A stretch of DNA of 64,000 bases, taken from NCBI GenBank assembly GCA_944383415.1, contig CALWPK010000006.1:28224-92223 (forward strand). Reading direction: 5' to 3'. Origin of the DNA: an uncultured Clostridia bacterium. GTDB lineage: Bacteria > Bacillota > Clostridia > Christensenellales > UBA1242. The position numbers and the translations under genes were made by a program. Positions 36,921 through 49,865 of this stretch are shown in pieces (the first letter of the stretch is position 1; each line of letters opens with the position of its first letter). Below the pieces are notes generated by a model. The model searched no databases, had not been told where the DNA came from, and saw only the letters and a program-made list of their open reading frames with translations.

Positions 36921-37024
36921 AAGTCCGTTCAAAGAATAGCACCTATTATGATTGCTAGTCTGTTGCCTTTATGGTTTATAGCAAAATGAGTAATAGGGAA
37001 GAAGACAAACAGGAGGTTAATTTT

Positions 37025-37873
37025 ATGTCAGTTATTTCAATGAAACAATTATTAGAAGCGGGTTGCCATTTTGGTCATCAGACTAGGAAATGGAATCCAA
37101 AGATGAAGAAGTTTATCTTCACGGATAGGAATGATATCCACATTATCAATCTTGAAGATACTTCCAAAAAGATAGATGAGGCTTATGTATTCATCAAAGA
37201 GAAAGTGCTTGCAGGCGCGAATGTATTGTTCATCGGCACGAAGAAACAAGCGAGCGAGACGGTCAAACAAGAGGCTGAAAGGTCTGGTATGTTCTATGTG
37301 AACACCCGTTGGCTCGGCGGTACTCTCACCAATTTCTCAACGATCAGAAAGAGAATCGATAGAATGAACAAATTGAACAATATGGAAACTTTAGGCGACT
37401 TTGATTTGCTTCCTAAAAAAGAGGTCATCAAATTGAAAGCCGAGAGAGACAAATTGGCAAACAATTTGACAGGTATCAAAGATATGACATCTCTTCCAGG
37501 ACTTATCATTTTGGTTGATCCGCACACAGAGCATATTGCAGTGAAGGAAGCGAAGAAACTGCACATTCCTACAGTTGGAATTGTTGACACGAACAGCGAT
37601 CCAGATGATGTAGATTATTGCATTCCAGCCAACGATGATGCGATTGGTTCAGTCAAGTTGATTTTAAGCGCACTCACAGATGCTATTTTGGAGGCAAAGG
37701 GTGGCGTCATTCTTCACGATCCTAATGCTGAAGACGAAGATGTATCTATGGAGGCTATGGTAAGTGGCGAGATCGTGAAAGACGAAGACAAGCCAGAAGA
37801 GAAGAAAAGACCCGTAAGAGCGAAGAAAGATAAGAAAGTCGAATCAGCCGAAGAGACTTCAAGCGAAGAGTAA
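37025..37873 (+). CDS. rpsB: 30S ribosomal protein S2 (with a charged C-terminal extension)
   Basis: [27 protein letters not shown] is present. The ATG at 37025 follows AGGAGG, and the track start at 36971 lies in the leader. Confidence 0.97.
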
Positions 37874-38141: not shown

Positions 38142-38801
38142 ATGAACATTACAGCAAAAGATGTCGCTCAATTGCGCGATATGACTGGTGCAGGAATGAT
38201 GGATTGCAAAAAGGCATTGGTAGACGCCGATGGCAATATGGATAAGGCTGTCGAACTTCTACGCGAAAGAGGAGTTGCTAAGGCTGCCAAGAAAGAGGGC
38301 AGAATCGCAGCCGAAGGATTCATTGACTCTTATGTGCACGGTGGCGGAAGTTTTGCTTCCCTTGTTGAAATCAACACAGAGACAGATTTTGCGGCAAAAA
38401 ATGAAGAATTGAGAGAGTTTGCTCACAATATTGCGATGCAGGTTGTAGCATCACGTCCTATTTGTGTGAATATTGATGAGGTTCCACAAGACAAAATCGA
38501 TGCAGAACGCAATATCTATCGTGTTCAACTTTTGAATGAAGGCAAACCTGAGGCAATGGTAGACAAAATCGTCGATGGCAAGATCAACAAATATTATGAA
38601 GAAGTCGTTTTGATGGAGCAACCTTATATTAGAGACGATTCAGGCAAGAAAAAGGTCAAAGACGTTTTGACTGAATTAGTTGCTAAAATCGGTGAGAAAA
38701 TCACTATCAGACGTTTCTATATGATGACAATGGGTGAAGGACTTACCAAGCGTAATGACGACTTTGCGGCAGAAGTTGCGGCTCAGACCAAAACAAAATA
38801 G
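38142..38801 (+). CDS. tsf: Translation elongation factor Ts (short form)
   Basis: ITAKDVAQLRDMTGAGMMDCKKAL and the LVEINTETDFAAKN motif are present. Confidence 0.96.
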   Translation: MNITAKDVAQLRDMTGAGMMDCKKALVDADGNMDKAVELLRERGVAKAAKKEGRIAAEGFIDSYVHGGGSFASLVEINTETDFAAKNEELREFAHNIAMQVVASRPICVNIDEVPQDKIDAERNIYRVQLLNEGKPEAMVDKIVDGKINKYYEEVVLMEQPYIRDDSGKKKVKDVLTELVAKIGEKITIRRFYMMTMGEGLTKRNDDFAAEVAAQTKTK

Positions 38802-38827
38802 TATATCAACCTTTTTGATGTTTAATG

Positions 38828-38860
38828 AAACTTTTGAGTTTTTGCTCAGAAGTTTTTTTT
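38828..38860 (+). terminator. Intrinsic terminator after tsf
   Basis: An 11-bp stem pairs AAACTTTTGAG with CTCAGAAGTTT (one G-U pair), followed by T8. Confidence 0.85.
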
Positions 38861-39109
38861 GTTGATATTAATGGAAATTTTTGATTTTTTCTTAATAATT
38901 TATAATAACCTATTCTTAGGATAATTTTACGAAAAATTTAATTTTATCAATATATTTCATTGAATAAATAGTATGATGAGATAGACTATTTTTTTCGTTT
39001 TTATGAATGAAAACCAGCGGAATTTACCTATTTCCCCCCTCAGATAGCAGATATTTATATAAATATATGAAAATTTATATAAAATTTTCGTATGGCATAT
39101 TGAATTTAC

Positions 39110-39141
39110 TTGACAAGGCTAGGGGGGGGGGGCATTAGAAT
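39110..39141 (+). promoter_or_regulatory. Candidate promoter of the surface-protein gene, with a G11 tract in the spacer
   Basis: TTGACA (39110-39115), a 20-nt spacer containing G11, then TAGAAT (39136-39141). An alternative -10, TATAAT, lies at 39149-39154. The SD AAGGAG lies at 39182-39187. Confidence 0.5.
39122..39132. repeat. Homopolymeric G11 tract
   Basis: Read directly from the sequence: A GGGGGGGGGGG C. It is the longest G/C run seen in the window. Confidence 0.99.
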
Positions 39142-39192
39142 ATAAGTGTATAATAATGTACGGAAAATACAAATTAATACAAAGGAGATAAG

Positions 39193-42100
39193 ATGGAAAA
39201 TCAAGAAAAGAAACCAAAGTCAACCAAGAATACAAACGCAAAGGATGTAGAGAAGAAAGTCTCTACATCGAAAGCAAGCAAAGCGAATGCCACCACTCAA
39301 GAAAGAGCAGTGAAATCTAATGCTAGTAAGCAGAGTGCAAGCAAGAGAGGTGTCAAGACTGAACCTAAGCAGACTGACGAGGTAGTGAAAGGTCAAGAGG
39401 TCGCTGTAGACACAGCAGATGTGGAGAGGAACAGTTCGAGTGACGACTTCAGTATACAGAGTCAGGGCGAGAGGATCAAGAAGAATGCGGGTAAGAATAG
39501 CAAGCGAAAGAAAGCAGCGATAGCCACTGCTGTAGTTTTGCTGGTCACAGCGAGCGTAGCAATACCTACAGCGGTATACCTATCTAGAAGGAAAGTGTCA
39601 GTAGATATCTCAAATAATATTGACGTGATACAAGAGTATACAGTAAATATCAAGCGAGGTAGCACGATCAAGGACATAGTTCCACAAGAGATCACGGGAT
39701 ATACATTCGTAGGGTTCTACAAGGATGCCGAACTCACCGTGCCATACAAAGATACGGATAAGATAAATAAAAATATGACCATATATGCCAAGTATGAGGC
39801 GAATGTATATAAGGTGACCTTCCCAACCAGCCCAGCATTCACCATTGAGGGCGAGGATATAGTGAACAACCAGGTAGAGATAGAGTACAACACAGAGTAT
39901 AGATTCAAACTAAATCTCGCTACAGGTTATAACGAGAGCGATATCACAGTCAAAGTGAATGGAGAGACCATCACACCAGATAAAGAAGGATACTATACTC
40001 TCACAATCTATGGAGACACACTAGTAGAGGTAGAAGGCGTGGAGATCAACACCTATGAGGTGACATTCTATGATAGCCTAGAGAAAAACGAGATATATCA
40101 AAGACTAGACATAGATTACAACGAACTCTGCACCTACACAGGCGTCACTCCAACTAAGCATAGCACCCATACATATACCTACACATTCATAGGCTGGGTA
40201 GATGCGGATGGTAATCCGGTAGACCTCAGCACTACCAATATAGTGACCGATCTAGAACTCTTCGCCAACTTCCGAGAAGAATATATAGAGTACACGATAT
40301 CCAAGCCAGAGCAAGTGAATGTGAAATTCGGAGATCTGTATTTATCCAACACAGCCACACTTCACTATGGAGATATAGTAGAGATAACTTATGACACCAC
40401 AGAGGGACACGATGTCACTGCTTTTTCTGTATCAGGAGCAGAGAAAGTAGAGGGGAGTGAGAATCAATATAAGATCACAGGCAACCTAGTGGTCACCTAT
40501 AGTGAGGAGATACAGAAATTCACAGTGCAAATAGTGTCTAGCAATTTTGAATATGGTTCAATTAATCAATCTAGCATAACAGTAGAGTATGGCACGACAT
40601 ATACAGTGGAAGGGAATGTATTAAGATTTAGTGATGGACAGACTGTGACAGCCACACCAGAGACAAACACTGCTCAGTATACATATACTTTTTTAGATTG
40701 GACAAGTGAGAGTGGCACAGTCACGGGAGAGGCTACGATCACAGCGAACTTCACTCGAGAGACGAATACCTACACAGTGTCTATTCAGAGCAACAATACA
40801 GAGTATGGCACAGTGACTGAATCTAGCGTGACAGTAGAGTATGGCACGGAGATAACCGTCAGTGGCAATACGATAACGATAGGAGAATATGCGATCACTG
40901 CTACACCTACTACCAGCACAGCACAATACTCATATTCATTCGCTAGTTGGAGCACTGGCAACACTACTGTCACAGGAGAGATTACAATCACAGCCACATT
41001 CACTCAAACAGTACAGACATATACCGTGACTTGGCAGAACTGGGACGGCACCACTCTAGAGACAGACACATCAGTTCCTTACGGCACTACTCCAGAGTAC
41101 AACGGAGAGACCCCTACACGTGAGGAGACCGCAAGCCATAGTTATACCTTCATAGGATGGGATCAAGAGATAAGCCCAGTGACAGGAGACATCACATACA
41201 CAGCCATATTCGACTCTGAGATCAAAGCGAGTTATGACTTCACCATAGAGGACGGCATCATCACCTCATACACAGGAAATGACACATACGTAGTTCTCCC
41301 AAGCACATATTCACTAAGTGAACCAATGGCGGTCTATGATTGTGCATTAGGTTATAGCGTCCTAATGAATATCATGTCGGGAACTGGAAATTATTTTGAG
41401 ATGTTAAATTATTCACCATTTGGATTTTATTTAATAGAAGATCAAGTTAAGGTCTTATTTACTAATATAAATGAGTTTATAGAATACCTTAACTCAATTA
41501 CATCGCTAAATCTACCATTCCAAATTGAATTGATATATGAATATGAGGTAGAAAGTTTAGATTCAATGACTACAGATACCAGATTGTTAGCACTGTTAGA
41601 TTGGACAGATACAGCAGGAAACACATTTTCTATAGAAACTGCAGATGGGAAAACACTATCAGGTTTGACCAAAGCGAATTATATTAGCGAAATCAACGCT
41701 CTCTATTCGGATTCGGGCAACATTGATTCAGCATTTCCAGCCAAAGTGAGCATATCACCATATATGATGCAATACGCTGTACCAGGAGATGACTATGAGG
41801 TGACCAGCATAGGAGGTGGTGCATTCGGCGAATGTAGCAGTCTCACCAGTATCACTATACCAGATAGTGTGACCAGCATAGGAAATTCTGCATTCGAAGG
41901 TTGTACCAGTCTCACCAGCATCATCATACCAGATAGTGTGACCAGCATAGGAGAGTGGGCATTCTCAGGATGTAGCAGTCTCACTAACATCATTATACCA
42001 AAGAGCGTGACTAGCATAGGAGAGTATGCATTCTCAGGATGTAGCAGTCTCACCAGCATCACTATACCAGATAGTGTGACCAGCATAGGAGAGAGGGTAT

Positions 42101-42399
42101 TCAATAATTGTTATAATCTCACCAGCATCACCATACCAGATAGTGTGACCAGCATAGGATATTATGCATTCGAAGATTGTAGCAGTCTCACCAGTGTGAC
42201 TATAGAGAGCAATTATGCGTACGCGAATGCGGGTACAGGATATTATCAATGTGGATATCTTTTAGAAAATGCTACTGAGGTGAGGGTGCTGATCAGTTGT
42301 ATTGAAGAGGGTAGCACGAATAGTTATCTTGAGGACACAGCGACCTTCACCAAGACCACCTCTGAGGACGGACTATATTATATTTACACAAAAAGGTAA
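39193..42399 (+). CDS. Large membrane-anchored surface protein with Listeria-Bacteroides (InlB B-type) repeats and C-terminal BspA-type LRRs
   Basis: A Lys/Ser-rich ~105-aa N-terminus precedes a single TM helix ([23 protein letters not shown]). Multiple ~80-aa units with the ...YTFIGW... signature follow, then six 23-aa LRRs ([22 protein letters not shown]). Confidence 0.9.
41800..42213 (+). repeat. Six tandem 69-bp near-identical coding repeats (LRR units)
   Basis: GTGACC/GTGACT recurs at 41800, 41869, 41938, 42007, 42076 and 42145, an exact 69-nt period, with long identical stretches (e.g. AGCAGTCTCACCAGCATCACTATACCAGATAGTGTGACCAGCATAGGAGAG). Confidence 0.95.
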
Positions 42400-42408
42400 T
42401 GATTGAAT

Positions 42409-43389
42409 ATGCGTGAGAATTATAAGATATCTATCATCATCCCAGTGTACAATGCGATTAAATATTTGCCAAAGTGTATTGAATCTATATTGTCACAGAC
42501 TTATGGCAATCTGGAGGTCATTTTCGTGGATGACGCCTCTACGGACGGCAGTAGAGAGTATATAGAGAAGATTATAGATAGATTCAAACAAGCGAGATTG
42601 ATCAAGAATGAGACTAATATCAAGCCATTTTTGTCGAGGATCAAAGGGTTTGAGCAATGCACGGGAGATTTCGTCATTTGTTTAGACGGTGATGATTATG
42701 TCGATAGTGATTATTATGAAAAATTGCTGAATAAAATAGTCGAGACAGATGCGGATATGTGCATAGGAGATACGACGATGGAGGGCTATCAGAACATAAT
42801 CGATTCGTCCACATTTGATTTCCGTACGGAATATTATGAAGGCGGAGAATGCCTAGACTACTTGCTTTTCTCAAACGAGAATAGGAATTTCTCCGTCTGG
42901 AACAAACTGGTGAAACGATCGGTCTTGAATACTGCGCTAGAGGATATGAAACAATATAATAATATTGAAAATAAGATCAGTTTCAGTGACGATGTCATCA
43001 CATTGCTAATAGTGGGATACTACGTGAAAAAATTGGTGGCTATGTTGGGACCTTGTTATCATTATGTGTATCATTACGAGCAGTCTACGAACATCACAGA
43101 CAAAGATCAACTTGCATTTCAATTGTATAGTTTGAAAAGGGGACGCAATATTGCATTGGATTTTTTGGAAAAGAAAAATCTATTGGCTAAATATGAAGAT
43201 TCTATAATCAGGAGATTCAATAAATCCTTTCTAAAACTAAAAAATGATGCCTATGTCAATGGGTATATGAAGGATCCAAATATAAAAAAATCATTCGAAT
43301 CTACGATAGTTGATTTGCGAAATTCGAATTTATATGGTAATATGAAGAAAGTAAATATTTTCAAGCCATTTGAAAAATATAAGCATTAG
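42409..43389 (+). CDS. Family-2 glycosyltransferase (paralogue A)
   Basis: ISIIIPVYNA, IFVDDASTDGS and a DGDDY DxD-type motif are present. The ATG at 42409 is preferred to the TTG at 42403. Confidence 0.88.
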   Translation: MRENYKISIIIPVYNAIKYLPKCIESILSQTYGNLEVIFVDDASTDGSREYIEKIIDRFKQARLIKNETNIKPFLSRIKGFEQCTGDFVICLDGDDYVDSDYYEKLLNKIVETDADMCIGDTTMEGYQNIIDSSTFDFRTEYYEGGECLDYLLFSNENRNFSVWNKLVKRSVLNTALEDMKQYNNIENKISFSDDVITLLIVGYYVKKLVAMLGPCYHYVYHYEQSTNITDKDQLAFQLYSLKRGRNIALDFLEKKNLLAKYEDSIIRRFNKSFLKLKNDAYVNGYMKDPNIKKSFESTIVDLRNSNLYGNMKKVNIFKPFEKYKH

Positions 43390-43442
43390 ATGTTTCGTCC
43401 ATCTAGGTTTGATTTTGATAATATTTACGAAATATATGAATT

Positions 43443-44429
43443 ATGACAGAGAAGAAAATATCTATTTTAATACCAGTATATAATGTGAAAAGATTTCTGC
43501 CTAAGTGCATTGATTCGCTAGTCAATCAGACCTATGGCAATCTTGAGATTATTTTCGTGGATGACGCCTCTACAGACGGCAGTAGAGAGTATCTTGAGGA
43601 AAACATTAATAGGTTGAAAAATGCGAGATTGATCCTGCACGAGCGAAACAAAAATTTGTTTTTGACACGAATCTCTGCTATGCGTGAGTGTACAGGAGAT
43701 TTCATCATCTGCCTAGATAGCGATGACTATGTGGACTATGATTATTACGAAGTGCTGGTCAAAAGAATGATCGATACTGGGGCGGATATGTGCATAGGCG
43801 ATATGCAGTTTGAGAACGGGGACAAGAAATTCGATAGATTTTCTAATGCAAGATTCGAAAAAGATTGCTACCTAAACGGCGAGTGTATTGACTATCTTCT
43901 CTTTTCGAATAACAATCAATTAATTTCGGTTTGGAACAAAATGATCAGTCGCAGGGTGCTGGATCGCTCGCTCACAGATATTGAGAAAATGGTGGATGGT
44001 GCGGAGGGTATAAATGTGTGTGAGGACAATATTTTCCTATTCGTTTTCGCGTACTATACTGAAAAACTTGTACGTGCCACTGGATCTAAATATCACTATG
44101 TACAACACGACAATCAATCGACCGTTTTCAATGACAAGGACAAATTAATTTCACAACTAAATAGCCTACAAAAAGCCGTTGATAGAATCATAATTTTTTT
44201 GAAAGAAAGAAATCTGTATCAACAATATGAAGACCGGATATTGAATAAATATAATTCGGTTTTTCTATTTTTGAAAAACAAGGTATATCAAAACGGATTT
44301 TCAAAAGATCCAGAGATTAAAAAAGCGTTTAATTTTGATTTTAAATCTAAATTTAAGTTCAAATATTCAGACAAACCTAAAATAAATTTATTTAAATTCG
44401 ATAATTTTAAAAACATAAAGTTAAAATAA
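43443..44429 (+). CDS. Family-2 glycosyltransferase (paralogue B)
   Basis: ISILIPVYNV, IFVDDASTDGS and DSDDY are present. It has the same length (328 aa) and is collinear with paralogue A. Confidence 0.88.
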   Translation: MTEKKISILIPVYNVKRFLPKCIDSLVNQTYGNLEIIFVDDASTDGSREYLEENINRLKNARLILHERNKNLFLTRISAMRECTGDFIICLDSDDYVDYDYYEVLVKRMIDTGADMCIGDMQFENGDKKFDRFSNARFEKDCYLNGECIDYLLFSNNNQLISVWNKMISRRVLDRSLTDIEKMVDGAEGINVCEDNIFLFVFAYYTEKLVRATGSKYHYVQHDNQSTVFNDKDKLISQLNSLQKAVDRIIIFLKERNLYQQYEDRILNKYNSVFLFLKNKVYQNGFSKDPEIKKAFNFDFKSKFKFKYSDKPKINLFKFDNFKNIKLK

Positions 44430-44513
44430 TATTACAAATACAAATCACTACTATTGGCGTTATCCAAAATAGACTCCGTAGAGTTTAATTGATCACATAA
44501 ATTTTGTAAAATT

Positions 44514-44563
44514 AACAGTTTGATACTCATTATACTTTTGAGTTTACATACTGTTATTTTTTT
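44514..44563 (+). terminator. Possible terminator after the glycosyltransferase pair
   Basis: AACAGT...ACTCA pairs with TGAGT...ACTGTT in an interrupted hairpin, followed by A-T7. Confidence 0.4.
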
Positions 44564-44740
44564 CCGTATCAATTACATAAATAATATACATAAAATACTT
44601 TCAGAAAATAAACGCAGATTATAATTATAAAACGATAAATTTTGATTTTTAATCGCGAAAAGATAGAAAATATCATTTTGATTATCAAATAAGTTGCAAT
44701 TTTTTTCAATATTTTGTAGTATAAACTTATAGGAGAAATT

Positions 44741-45307
44741 ATGAACGAAAATGTTGAAATGGCAAAAATGGAATTTGAGGATAATTTGAACAAACAATTC
44801 AATAGGTTGATCGACGAGTATATGATGATCAGGGTCGGCAGGGCAAACCCTAAGTTGATAGAGAATATCAAAGTCGACTATTACGGCACACGCACGCCGA
44901 TCATTCAGACTGGCAACATCACAGTGCAAGACGCACGAATGCTCGTGATATCCCCTTGGGATGCTAGCACCATCAAATCGATTAAGGCAGGGATTGAGTC
45001 CGCAAATTTGGGAGTATCGGTAAGCGATGACGGGAAGATCATTCGCGTGGGGTTCCCAATTCTCACCGAAGAGAGGAGAAGAGAGTTTTCAAAAGACGCA
45101 AAAAAACTTCTGGAAGAATGCAAGATTGCTATGAGGAACGCGAGAAGAGACTGCTTGGATATTTTCAAGGATATGAAGAAGAATTCTGAGATTAGCGAAG
45201 ATGAGTATGTTGCGCTAGAAAAAGATGTGCAGAAATCTTTAGATACTTTCACGGAGAAAGCAGATAAGAGTTGTGAAAAGAAAATTGCAGAGATAATGGA
45301 AGTGTAG
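44741..45307 (+). CDS. frr: Ribosome recycling factor
   Basis: RVGRANPKLIENIKVDYYGTRTPI and the PILTEERRREF motif are present. Confidence 0.96.
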   Translation: MNENVEMAKMEFEDNLNKQFNRLIDEYMMIRVGRANPKLIENIKVDYYGTRTPIIQTGNITVQDARMLVISPWDASTIKSIKAGIESANLGVSVSDDGKIIRVGFPILTEERRREFSKDAKKLLEECKIAMRNARRDCLDIFKDMKKNSEISEDEYVALEKDVQKSLDTFTEKADKSCEKKIAEIMEV

Positions 45308-45308
45308 A

Positions 45309-46028
45309 ATGAATTTTGAAAAATTGAAAAATGATCCAAGACTGCCACAGCACCTCGCTTTCATAATAGACGGCAACGGCAGATGGGCAAAACACAGGGG
45401 GCTACCAAGAAGTCTAGGGCATAAAGCGGGCTTTGACAACCTCAAAAAGCACACTGAATACGTGGAACAGTTGGGAATAAAAAATTTATCTCTATATTGT
45501 TTTAGCAAAGAAAACTGGAATAGACCTAAGGATGAGGTTGACTATTTAATGACGTTATTTGATCAAATGTTAGACGAATACAAACGCGAATATTTGAATA
45601 GAGATGTGCGAATAATTATTTCTGGAGATATGGATGATATCAGGATTCCTGAGAGTGTGAGGGAAAAAGCAAAAGAATTGATGCTACTCACTAGGAATAA
45701 AACTGGATTTGTCATCAATCCTTGCATAAATTATGGTGGTAGACAAGAAATCTTGAAGGCGGTCAATGAGTTACTGCAAGAGGGCAAAAAACAAATAGAT
45801 GCAAGCGAATTCGAAAAACATTTGTACACAAAAGATTTGCTCCCACTAGATTTCATCATTAGGACATCTGGAGAGTTGAGGACTAGCAATTTCTTGCCAT
45901 ATCAGTCTACATATAGCGAATGGTATTTTCCGAAAACTCTTTGGCCTAGTTTTAGCAAAAAAGATTTGGTACGTGCGCTGGTCGCATATTTGAAACGCAA
46001 CAGACGATTCGGAGCAATAAAAGGATAA
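45309..46028 (+). CDS. uppS: Isoprenyl transferase (undecaprenyl diphosphate synthase)
   Basis: HLAFIIDGNGRWAK and IRTSGELRTSNFLPYQSTYSEWYF are present. Confidence 0.96.
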   Translation: MNFEKLKNDPRLPQHLAFIIDGNGRWAKHRGLPRSLGHKAGFDNLKKHTEYVEQLGIKNLSLYCFSKENWNRPKDEVDYLMTLFDQMLDEYKREYLNRDVRIIISGDMDDIRIPESVREKAKELMLLTRNKTGFVINPCINYGGRQEILKAVNELLQEGKKQIDASEFEKHLYTKDLLPLDFIIRTSGELRTSNFLPYQSTYSEWYFPKTLWPSFSKKDLVRALVAYLKRNRRFGAIKG

Positions 46029-46030
46029 AG

Positions 46031-46930
46031 ATGAAACAAAGATCAATTACAAGTTTTTTTATAGTTTTGGTGGTGGCACTCGCGGTCGCTAGTAAATTTT
46101 TGCCTTATGATATAGGTGATTACGTTTTCGATCTATTCATTTTGTGCGTCACAGTGGTCGCATCGTTTGAAATGAGTCACTTGATGGAAAGTTGCAATAA
46201 AAAAGTGAACAAATATCTTTCTTCAATGTATGCAATTTTCAACTATATCATTTTGATATGCTGTTTTAAACTGCTTGAATTTTATTATATCCTTTTGATC
46301 GAACTAGCAGGGTTAATTGTGTATTTTTGCCTAATTTTGATCACAGAGTCTATCAAAAACAATGCTAGGACTTTCAAAGAAAACGTAATGGTCAGTTTGA
46401 ATAGTTTTTTAGTGTGTTTCTATCCTGGATTCTTGTTTTGTCTATTCTTAAATATTAATCATATTGATTTTTATGCAGGTGTTGAATATTTCTCAATTGC
46501 TTTTATACTGCTCGTATTCGCCATCACTATGCTTTCAGATACCTTTGCATACCTTATCGGTAGAACACTTAAAGGACCGAAACTTGCACCAACAATTAGT
46601 CCGAACAAAACAATTAGTGGGGCAATAGGTGGTCTATTGGGCGGAATCGCTGGCAGTATGCTAGTATATGCTTTGTCATACAATGTTGATTCAATGAGTT
46701 TAATCCTCACTATGTACAATCTTTCTTGGTGGCATTTCTTGATCGTGGGGTTGATCGGATCGTTGGTTAGCCAAATTGGTGATCTGGTTGAGAGCAAAAT
46801 CAAGCGCGTTGCAAATATAAAAGACAGTGGCAACATCTTACCTGGTCATGGCGGAATGCTAGATAGAATCGATGCTATGATTTTCTGCGTCACATTCTTG
46901 TATGTAGTATGCTTCATTATTATTCTCTAA
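46031..46930 (+). CDS. cdsA: Phosphatidate cytidylyltransferase
   Basis: The signature ESKIKRVANIKDSGNILPGHGGMLDRIDA is present. Confidence 0.93.
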   Translation: MKQRSITSFFIVLVVALAVASKFLPYDIGDYVFDLFILCVTVVASFEMSHLMESCNKKVNKYLSSMYAIFNYIILICCFKLLEFYYILLIELAGLIVYFCLILITESIKNNARTFKENVMVSLNSFLVCFYPGFLFCLFLNINHIDFYAGVEYFSIAFILLVFAITMLSDTFAYLIGRTLKGPKLAPTISPNKTISGAIGGLLGGIAGSMLVYALSYNVDSMSLILTMYNLSWWHFLIVGLIGSLVSQIGDLVESKIKRVANIKDSGNILPGHGGMLDRIDAMIFCVTFLYVVCFIIIL

Positions 46931-48292: not shown

Positions 48293-48329
48293 GTCAGGAT
48301 TGTTATAGTTGACAATTCTGACTTTTTTT
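48293..48329 (+). terminator. Strong intrinsic terminator after rseP
   Basis: A 10-bp stem pairs GTCAGGATTG (48293-48302) with CAATTCTGAC (48313-48322), with one G-U pair. T7 follows at 48323-48329. Confidence 0.85.
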
Positions 48330-48337
48330 GATATATT
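48309..48337 (+). promoter_or_regulatory. Sigma-A promoter with extended -10 embedded in the rseP terminator
   Basis: TTGACA (48309-48314), a 17-nt spacer ending in TGa, then TATATT (48332-48337). The next ATG (48345) lies 7 nt downstream. Confidence 0.55.
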
Positions 48338-48344
48338 TACATTT

Positions 48345-49865
48345 ATGAACGATAGACTAGATATTTTAGATAGATTATATGATGGATTAAAATTCAAAAA
48401 CGCAACCTATACAGAAAATAATAATACCTGCGTAATGAATTTTTTGTACAATCCAGATGTTTTCAAGCCAAATGAACAAAATAGAATTGAATTATTAAAC
48501 AAATTCAAAGAGATCATTGGGGATTATGTCAAATTTGATATAAAATTTACAAATTGCCCATTGGATAAACGCACTATAGCGAACTATACATATTCAACTA
48601 TTGTCAATATATTTCCTGCGATTTCTAAAAATTTTACTTATGACGATGTATCGGTAAATATAGAGAATATGAAAGTAAATATCACTTTGCGTTTATCACC
48701 ATCAGCGTATGAATATGCGAAGAGTCTGAATAGAGAGACTTTGATCGCTGAAAAATTGAAAGAAAGTTTTTTTGCTGATTTTTCTGTCCAATTCGAAAGA
48801 AAAGACGATGAGGTGGTCGTAGAAAACCGAATAGAAAGTAATGCTGAATTTATGTCATCAATCAAGGAGGCTGAGGAAAAAACTGTTTATGAATTGTCCA
48901 ATCAGGCGAATATAATAGGAATAAATGATTATAATTTGGCTACAGATTTTACAAAAGTTAAGTCACCAGTTGAAAATGTAGCAATTTGTGGTGAAGTGAA
49001 TTCTGTTCAGCGCAAGACATACAAGCGGAACTATACAAGAAATGGAGAGACGAAAGAAATTGAACGCGCCTTTTATAATTTTACACTGCGAAACGAAAAC
49101 AAATTCTTGTATTGTGTAATTTTCCCAAAACAAGCAGATGAAGCGAAAGGTGATTTGATCGAAGTGGGGATGAAAGTGTGTTGTTTTGGTTCATTTAGGG
49201 AATTTAATGGCAAAATGAATTTTACAGCCAATTCAATCGCTCGATGTGAATTCAAACGAGAAGAAATAAAATCTCAATTTAAACACGTCAATGAAGAATA
49301 TCATACCGTTTTCCCTCAAAAATATGTTGATTATGAACAAGCGGATCTATTTTCAGATGCCGAAAAGACTTTTGATGGCAGTTTCGTAGTGTTTGACTTG
49401 GAGACTACAGGACTTGAATCTACAAAGGATGAAATAATTGAGATTGGTGCGTGTAAAATTTTGCAGGGCAAAATTGTTGAAACGTTCTCTACTTTTGTCA
49501 AACCTAGTAGACATATTCCGAAAGAAATTACAGATCTGACGGGGATTGATGATACTATGGTTGAAAACGCTCCAACAATCAATTACGTATTGCCAGATTT
49601 TTATAAATTTTGCTATGCTTCGACAATGGTGGGGCACAATGTATCATTTGATATTTCATTTATATATTTCATAGCGAAAAAACTATCATATAATTTTGAC
49701 AATCCACTAATGGACACATTGGAGATGGCGAGAGCGAAACTGCCAGGATTGAAGAATTACAAATTGTCTACAGTGGTAGAAAGACTCAATATTGTACTCG
49801 ACAACGCGCACCGCGCCATCAATGACGCCACTGCTACCGCAAAAGTTTTTATAAAATTGTATTAA
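48345..49865 (+). CDS. DEDDh 3'-5' exonuclease (DnaQ/PolC-exo type) fused to a ~330-aa N-terminal region with an OB-fold-like segment. No polymerase or PHP domains are present.
   Basis: Exo motifs are present: FVVFDLETTGL (I), HNVSFDISFI (II) and HRAINDATATAKVF (III). The OB-like pattern is NVAICGEV....FTLRNENKFLYCVIFPK....GMKVCCFGSF. It occupies the polC slot between rseP and rimP. The track start at 48309 is the -35 box inside the terminator. Confidence 0.8.
   Translation: MNDRLDILDRLYDGLKFKNATYTENNNTCVMNFLYNPDVFKPNEQNRIELLNKFKEIIGDYVKFDIKFTNCPLDKRTIANYTYSTIVNIFPAISKNFTYDDVSVNIENMKVNITLRLSPSAYEYAKSLNRETLIAEKLKESFFADFSVQFERKDDEVVVENRIESNAEFMSSIKEAEEKTVYELSNQANIIGINDYNLATDFTKVKSPVENVAICGEVNSVQRKTYKRNYTRNGETKEIERAFYNFTLRNENKFLYCVIFPKQADEAKGDLIEVGMKVCCFGSFREFNGKMNFTANSIARCEFKREEIKSQFKHVNEEYHTVFPQKYVDYEQADLFSDAEKTFDGSFVVFDLETTGLESTKDEIIEIGACKILQGKIVETFSTFVKPSRHIPKEITDLTGIDDTMVENAPTINYVLPDFYKFCYASTMVGHNVSFDISFIYFIAKKLSYNFDNPLMDTLEMARAKLPGLKNYKLSTVVERLNIVLDNAHRAINDATATAKVFIKLY

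Follow-up and report, generated by a model that had tools for sequence, protein, structure and literature searches.

In the canonical arrangement of the Bacillota, the genes rpsB-tsf-pyrH-frr-uppS-cdsA form a conserved cluster. Its third gene encodes PyrH, which is regarded as the essential, bacteria-specific and 'universal' bacterial uridine monophosphate (UMP) kinase and serves as a target in antibacterial research. In Mycoplasma hyorhinis (vlp) and Mycoplasma bovis (vsp), variable surface proteins are encoded by multigene families whose promoters contain homopolymer tracts, and poly-G contingency genes are known from Campylobacter, Neisseria and Haemophilus. Among the transferases that decorate surface polymers, TarP is encoded by an accessory, strain-variable gene and alters surface antigenicity. 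The present analysis concerns a locus combining elements reminiscent of these systems, located at positions 38861-44740 of a 64,000-nucleotide (nt) stretch of DNA, hereafter the window, on contig 6 of an uncultured Clostridia bacterium. The genome examined (G000) amounts to 1.09 Mb in 16 contigs and is 96% complete. Between tsf and frr, where pyrH would be expected, the window carries a gene for a 1068-residue leucine-rich-repeat (LRR) surface protein followed by two family-2 glycosyltransferase genes, GT2a and GT2b. These three genes are collectively referred to as the cassette.

With a probability of about 0.7, these 5.9 kb would constitute a lineage-restricted accessory operon that diversifies the cell surface and is not a replacement for pyrH. 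Genes in the window were called from an open reading frame (ORF) listing combined with Pfam profile scans. The resulting order is rpsB, tsf, a terminator, the LRR gene, GT2a, GT2b, a second terminator, frr, uppS, cdsA and an M50 protease gene. The original prediction of a 5.9-kb insertion composed of a surface protein, two GT2 genes and then frr was thereby confirmed by both ORFs and Pfam. The individual features are as follows.

36971-37873, + strand: rpsB (ribosomal protein S2), left anchor of the conserved cluster (PF00318, E=6e-95)
38142-38801, + strand: tsf (elongation factor EF-Ts), short form of 219 residues (PF00889; TIGR00116, 215 bits)
38827-38864, + strand: intrinsic terminator of tsf, 13-bp stem at 38827-38856 and T-run (-14.7 kcal/mol, z = -4.6)
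38865-39049, no strand: AT-rich single-copy spacer from the tsf terminator to the multi-copy promoter block (no second copy in the genome)
39050-39192, + strand: promoter/leader block common to the LRR family (93-98% identical to copies on contigs C1, C11, C14 and C16)
39193-42399, + strand: predicted surface protein of 1068 residues, type-II-anchored (Pfam LRR_5, E=5.7e-55, and Flg_new)
41313-41959, + strand: strain-variable segment within the LRR gene (comparison with the conspecific scaffold L092)
41800-42273, + strand: tandem repeats coding for LRR units (five copies, 69-nt spacing, 69 nt each)
42403-43389, + strand: GT2a, predicted family-2 glycosyltransferase (PF00535, E=2e-35)
43443-44429, + strand: GT2b, predicted family-2 glycosyltransferase, GT-A core plus helical domain at the C-terminus (PF00535, E about 1e-35)
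44513-44563, + strand: cassette terminator, hairpin and T7 (-13.2 kcal/mol, z = -4.5)
44692-44727, + strand: promoter of frr itself (TTGCAA, 17 nt, TAGTAT; the motif recurs 5' of frr across the genus)
44741-46930, + strand: frr (44741-45307), uppS and cdsA, right anchor of the conserved cluster (PF01765, PF01255, PF01148)

Particular attention was devoted to the missing kinase. No UMP kinase ORF had been noticed in the window, and this was borne out for the whole genome, as the AA_kinase and PyrH profiles match neither. The AA_kinase fold (PF00696) was not encountered anywhere in G000 by profile search, TIGR02075 did not locate a pyrH elsewhere in the assembly, and PyrH from the same order retrieved nothing by tblastn (best E 0.81). 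The absence extends to the entire bacterial family. TIGR02075 matches 143 of the 151 genomes of the order, against none of the six belonging to this family, and in a larger set of 121 family genomes, which span 0.6-1.6 Mb and at least 58 genera, it exceeds the model cut-off only once, leaving 120 genomes devoid of pyrH. The lone match resides on a 2.8-kb contig of a metagenome-assembled genome (MAG) of 140 contigs. It looks mis-binned because the rpsB of this contig is 54% identical to that of the window, a value typical of the other families (55-63%) and not of this one (65-69% in the two other same-family genera checked). The tsf-frr interval was then compared among relatives. Six other families of the order, each represented by one genome, keep the complete rpsB-tsf-pyrH-frr-uppS-cdsA cluster, with pyrH in the interval. 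In the genus of the window the junction is empty in 15 of 20 genomes, tsf and frr being 112-340 nt apart, and the corresponding distance is 128-237 nt in three genomes of a sister genus. The ancestral state in both genera is tsf directly beside frr. Family-wide absence and empty junctions in the two genera together indicate that pyrH was lost cleanly in the family ancestor, long before the cassette existed. A survey of the literature on pyrH-less bacteria turned up nothing relevant.

The cassette is fixed in the sampled populations of the species as well as in two sister lineages, and absent from the rest of the genus. The public sequencing runs containing this stretch are chicken-gut metagenomes; contigs from four of these, originating from four studies, cover both cassette junctions, and a direct tsf-to-frr joint was found in none of the four. 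The order LRR gene-GT2-GT2-frr is also displayed by a sister species, at 91% nt identity, and by a third lineage whose GT2b is 67% identical. In a tree built on frr and uppS, all cassette carriers group with two further genomes, G006 and G007, in one clade (100/99 support), which points to a single origin of the cassette in one sub-clade. In G007, only the last ~35 codons of an LRR gene are kept before a broken GT2b, and this locus is a deletion relic. In G006, the contig ends carrying tsf and frr overlap by 16 nt, which suggests that the site is empty and the cassette probably absent. The cassette thus appears to be decaying or absent in the two other sub-clade members examined. This type of GT2 gene is rare in the genus, with two copies in G000, one split into two frames in G007 and one elsewhere in the genome of G012. 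The description of the 5.9 kb as an accessory insertion is accordingly supported in the sense of a lineage-restricted one. It had also been anticipated that close relatives sharing the order, with pyrH elsewhere, would speak for an ancient fixed arrangement rather than a strain-variable island. This stands in part only: the order is shared by three lineages and fixed in the species, so that no strain-level island is involved; the other members of the genus lack it, and the assembly contains no pyrH.

Other members of the genus or family display different contents at the same place. The tsf-frr spacer of G012 holds an HA-repeat protein gene and a DUF6886-like gene, that of G106 a 2.66-kb insert, while the neighbourhood is rearranged in G050, where rplS precedes frr. 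Comparison of these sequences indicates that the vacated spacer collected different accessory genes in different species. A separate observation concerns two sister species (G009, locus L047, 11541-12227; G014, locus L046), in which a tsf-frr spacer of ~0.7 kb includes an apparent short ORF on the reverse strand.

The transcriptional organization of the locus was deduced from its signals. The strong terminator proposed after tsf is real, combining a 13-bp stem and a T-run (z = -4.6) that none of 200 shuffled sequences could fold equally well. The cassette was likewise said to possess its own promoter and a possible terminator, and this is supported by the hairpin at 44513-44563 (z = -4.5), a comparable hairpin being present at the same position in G007. 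GT2a starts 3-9 nt past the LRR stop codon, with its ribosome-binding site (RBS) inside the 3' end of the LRR gene, and the 53-nt spacer separating GT2a from GT2b shows no significant structure when its fold is compared with those of shuffled sequences. Terminators were found only at both ends of the three-gene unit. In the simplest reading, the LRR gene, GT2a and GT2b would form one transcription unit between the two terminators and would be co-transcribed from the LRR-family promoter. At the empty sites of the genus, the 3' arm of the tsf terminator often serves as the -35 element of the frr promoter. Inspection of the empty junctions (L033-L043) revealed a compact terminator-promoter overlap, in which this 3' arm and its T-run (CTTGCTATTTTTTT) extend over the -35 element (TTGCTA or TTGCAA) of a conserved frr promoter in which TA..AT follows after 17 nt.

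The 1068-residue protein begins with a tail of 105 residues that is rich in Lys and Ser according to its composition (net charge +9), followed by a single strong transmembrane (TM) helix at residues ~108-130 according to hydropathy. Beyond this helix are found repeats of the Listeria-Bacteroides type, six LRR units of the BspA type with 23 residues each, and a tail conserved in the family; the tandem LRR_5 units score 185 bits against a cut-off of 27.7. The protein is predicted to be signal-anchored, with its C-terminus outside the cell. Counting this gene, the genome contains at least seven paralogues, many of them located at contig ends. These paralogues share a promoter/leader of ~140 bp and the first ~1.5 kb at 93-96% nt identity, in addition to the conserved C-terminal tail, and the N-terminal module occurs only in about 32 clusters of proteins that are 1062-1786 residues long. 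Sequencing depth in the metagenomes is ~1.5- to 40-fold higher over the body of the LRR gene than over its flanks, consistent with several copies. Variation is also observed at the locus itself. On L092, a conspecific scaffold of 241 kb from a different sample, the segment 41313-41959 is replaced by an unrelated one of 898 nt, giving rise to an LRR protein of 1151 residues, whereas the flanks are 97-98% identical.

The promoter block upstream of the LRR gene comprises TTGACA (39110-39115), a G11 tract (39122-39132), TAGAAT (39136-39141), TATAAT (39149-39154) and an RBS. The homopolymer is thus placed within the promoter spacer, between TTGACA and TAGAAT. Its length differs among the copies (10, 10 in an interrupted tract, 11, 11 and 13) and the conspecific strain carries an interrupted 10-nt tract at the same locus, so that tracts of 10, 11, 11 and 13 plus two interrupted ones are found among copies and strains. 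This pattern fits slipped-strand control, through which the poly-G tract would probably vary expression. In some paralogous promoters the G tract is interrupted by A or T, and such interruptions may lock individual copies.

The two glycosyltransferases are 50% identical to each other and score 122.5 and 119 bits with PF00535 against a cut-off of 23.3; neither reaches the cut-off of a curated NCBIfam equivalog. The residues D92, D94 and D95 (D-S/G-D-D), which include a DxD motif, as well as D41 and D45, are invariant in 46 aligned homologues. An AlphaFold (AF2) model of GT2b, with a predicted local distance difference test score (pLDDT) of 92.7 and a predicted template modelling score (pTM) of 0.90, displays a GT-A core with a helical domain at the C-terminus. 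All 50 of the best PDB matches to this model are glycosyltransferases, mostly known GT-A enzymes, CgT (5HEA) ranking first, followed by TarS, TarP and RmlT. In Streptococcus parasanguinis, CgT forms the GT-A domain at the C-terminus of dGT1 (GalT1; PDB 5HEA/5HEC), and adds N-acetylglucosamine (GlcNAc) to the glycan of the Fap1 adhesin (PMC5063993). According to the model, the GT2 proteins fold like transferases that decorate polymers (CgT, TarS/TarP). The function favoured by analogy for GT2a and GT2b, both predicted to be cytoplasmic, would be the decoration of a surface polymer, be it a glycopolymer of the wall or a glycan carried by LRR proteins.

The formation of the locus can be briefly summarized as follows. 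In the ancestor of the family, composed of gut Clostridia with genomes of ~1 Mb, the loss of pyrH left a short tsf-frr spacer containing the tsf terminator and the frr promoter. This spacer acquired, in one sub-clade of the genus, an operon in which a single member of a multi-copy surface-protein family is followed by GT2 genes. The operon would have arrived, and would keep changing, by homologous recombination and gene conversion among the LRR paralogues. As the paralogues share both the promoter/5' block (93-96%) and the conserved 3' tail, no integrase is needed. Recombination among LRR copies would explain the insertion, the strain-level segment swap and the relics alike, and the locus would diversify the cell surface.

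Different origins of the arrangement were weighed against this recombination scheme. A mobile genomic island, or the remnant of a phage or of an integrative and conjugative element, inserted by site-specific recombination, would agree with the lineage-restricted occurrence of the cassette, with its own promoter and terminator, and with the other inserts held by the same intergenic spacer in other species. Such an island is nevertheless very unlikely. The original prediction had seen no integrase, tRNA or flanking direct repeats, and the searches concur: neither integrase nor transposase was found in the interval or the window by ORFs and Pfam, the window contains no tRNA and no Rfam element, and the search of the flanks for short direct repeats produced only AT-rich matches of 14-22 nt at chance level. 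One 17-nt match is shared by the two terminators, where ~17 such matches are expected by chance according to a rough estimate. In addition, the GC content of the cassette is not distinct from that of the adjacent genes and its left end is the promoter block common to the chromosomal paralogues. Under the original proposal, pyrH would have been displaced by the cassette, or the cassette would have been assembled at its site; in the version considered here, pyrH would in addition have moved elsewhere. This reading takes its appeal from the fact that the exact pyrH slot of the other families of the order is occupied. It is contradicted by the absence of pyrH from the genome and from 120 of 121 family genomes, and by the empty junctions in most members of the genus and in the sister genus, and hardly any probability can be left to it. 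Finally, the arrangement could be imagined as an assembly chimera produced by the multi-copy LRR repeats, as short-read contigs from all examined metagenomes, and from several MAGs, end at either border of the LRR gene; metagenome contigs arriving from tsf pass through the AT-rich spacer and stop at 39077-39107. L092 is however contiguous over 241 kb, comes from a separate sample and, at 97-98% identity, maintains an unbroken rpsB-tsf-LRR-GT2-GT2-frr order reaching rseP. Single-copy sequence on either side also enters LRR sequence in four independent runs. Owing to this scaffold and to the metagenome contigs over both junctions, the join is not an assembly artefact and a chimera can for all practical purposes be dismissed.

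A rather unlikely but more serious alternative concerns function: the GT2 pair would be unrelated to the LRR protein and form an accessory module decorating wall glycopolymers (TarS/TarP/RmlT type) in connection with the undecaprenyl-phosphate pathway, the LRR gene having merely landed upstream. The fold matches to TarS, TarP and RmlT are nearly as good as that to CgT, a relative of 41% identity stands beside a gene for a VTT/DedA-type membrane protein with no LRR gene nearby, uppS is located downstream of the pair, and the six other LRR paralogues of the genome have no GT2 neighbour. On the other hand, an adhesin-glycan transferase ranks first both by sequence and by fold and, in G007, the GT2 gene is split at the very locus where the LRR gene is deleted. 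The GT2 subfamily is also repeatedly found directly after an LRR-family 3' tail. Two further relic contexts at this locus display such an apparent tail, namely G007 and the third lineage (L071/L072), where it lies between the two GT2 genes, and the same association is seen at one or two other chromosomal sites (L086/L087, 5' of rpsF; G012, contig C19). Overall, the evidence for a GT2-LRR link is limited. Several points weigh against the accessory surface operon as proposed here. The LRR tails 5' of GT2 genes at other loci are short peptides of 9-25 residues at contig ends. Only one of the at least seven LRR paralogues has GT2 neighbours, and the GT2 enzymes are therefore not required by the LRR family in general; the genes adjoin uppS, a position that would likewise suit enzymes acting on undecaprenyl-linked wall polymers. 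Both the proposed co-transcription and the proposed phase variation are read from sequence, and the minus-one variant of the G tract observed in metagenome contigs is confounded by paralogues. As regards the succession of gains and losses in the sub-clade, the tree is a polytomy and the empty site of G006 relies on the short contig overlap.

The loss of PyrH raises the question of how uridine diphosphate (UDP) is produced. In the five family genomes checked, pyrG, upp and udk are absent. The loss of pyrG was considered as a family trait and rejected, as this gene is patchy across the order and present in 41 of 61 genomes; only the loss of pyrH is therefore family-specific. Scans for dNK and deaminases yielded nothing decisive, a 150-residue deaminase being one that we take to resemble, in general terms, tRNA deaminases of the TadA kind. 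The ATP/ADP-type nucleotide transporter profile PF03219 found no match in the genome, nor in control genomes. The nucleoside-monophosphate kinases found in the genome are a canonical Cmk, Adk and an archaeal-type Cmk-like protein of 183 residues. In the base pocket of Cmk (E. coli numbering), Ser36, Arg110 and Asp132 are conserved and only Arg188 is changed to Lys; altered base-pocket specificity was rejected, no switch being visible. The cmk gene (contig C10, 43954-44619; locus L089, 3958-4623) has a start codon overlapping the enolase stop codon by 4 nt, and is probably co-translated with this highly expressed glycolytic gene, which would be relevant if Cmk must cover the UMP kinase activity. 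The 183-residue protein scores under the equivalog cut-off. It was rejected as a clean replacement for PyrH, being found in 17 of 151 genomes of the order, including pyrH-bearing families, and in one of five other family genomes with that query. Many family genomes display two Cmk-type matches, these counts being only suggestive since the PF13189 scan cross-matches canonical Cmk, and several other genera of the family contain two separate Cmk-type copies. Two fused forms were also observed. A tandem Cmk-Cmk fusion of ~445 residues occurs in a sister genus (L052, G072), its second copy carrying a divergent C-terminal substrate-lid motif, and in another genus (L053, G106) MiaA and Cmk share one open frame of 524 residues, followed by a Gmk-like protein of 276 residues. 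In E. coli, Cmk possesses weak UMP kinase activity and its over-expression suppresses the loss of PyrH (PMC3603445), which makes a Cmk-type enzyme the leading candidate. By this analogy, UMP would most plausibly be phosphorylated by Cmk-type kinases in the present organisms. A broader proposal is put forward tentatively, with somewhat less than even confidence: the whole family, lacking PyrH, would make UDP by means of a Cmk-type kinase (the canonical enzyme and/or recurrent second copies), in a natural non-orthologous displacement after which the vacated tsf-frr junction became a hot spot for cell-surface accessory genes.

Two additional observations were made on neighbouring genes. At 48309-49865 of the window, in the usual polC slot of the Bacillota (after rseP and before rimP-nusA), a product of 518 residues combines an OB (oligonucleotide/oligosaccharide-binding) fold and a DEDDh exonuclease, with no polymerase domain. 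A related lineage has the same gene (506 residues), and the single gene of the Pol III alpha family in the whole genome is an open frame of 1222 residues on contig 14. The 518-residue gene may represent a split or reduced PolC arrangement. Furthermore, EF-Ts exists in two forms within the genus, a short one of ~219 residues, including that of this species, and a long one aligning as two segments (loci L031-L050). The short and the long form intermingle on the tree of frr and uppS.

What surprises in these data, and deserves pursuit, is that PyrH is absent family-wide; the cassette itself is ordinary though well-resolved. A large and widespread gut lineage without PyrH offers a concrete way to ask which enzyme supplies UDP, and the absence bears on the dependence of these organisms on nucleotides from their surroundings. 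The cassette, as interpreted here, would illustrate surface diversification in an uncultured gut bacterium of reduced genome size, with one copy of a recombining, poly-G-controlled adhesin-like family tied to two predicted decorating glycosyltransferases and parked in a housekeeping operon without mobile-element machinery.

Compared with the known systems, GT2b is closest to CgT, which provides its best sequence match (90.9 bits, residues 5-161) and its best fold match (E=7e-19). In both, a GT-A core is followed by a helical domain, and both genes adjoin an adhesin gene; identity is only 22% and the template modelling score (TM-score) 0.54. Unlike dGT1, the GT2 proteins are single-domain enzymes without DUF1792, and there is no serine-rich repeat substrate: the 1068-residue protein contains no serine-rich repeat region of the Fap1/GspB type, only its 105-residue tail being moderately rich in Ser/Thr (22/105). 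GtfA/GtfB and SecA2/SecY2 were not seen within 38861-44740 among the ORFs and Pfam matches, no dedicated search having been made. TarS and TarP of Staphylococcus aureus and RmlT of Listeria monocytogenes share with GT2b a GT-A domain and a C-terminal helical region (E about 1e-15 to 1e-13), at 16-22% identity; GT2b is devoid of TarS-type trimerisation domains and the likeness is one of fold only. The surface protein resembles the BspA-type LRR proteins (Tannerella BspA, streptococcal HupY/LrrG) by its six LRR_5 units (E=5.7e-55). It differs from them by its N-terminal signal-anchor and lineage-specific N-terminal module, and it is not included in the HupY equivalog, the model giving a weak match of 68 bits against a cut-off of 1250. 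As in the vlp, vsp and poly-G families, the LRR paralogues are nearly identical in promoter and 5' block but diverge in their repeat-rich ectodomains, and a homopolymer tract located between -35 and -10 differs in length by copy and strain. Unlike the members of these families, the LRR proteins of these Clostridia are BspA-type proteins anchored by an N-terminal TM helix instead of lipoproteins, and one copy is coupled to glycosyltransferase genes. With respect to the canonical rpsB-tsf-pyrH-frr-uppS-cdsA cluster of the Bacillota, the flanking genes and their order are identical; the difference lies in the family-wide deletion of pyrH and in the apparent reuse of the junction as a landing site for accessory genes.

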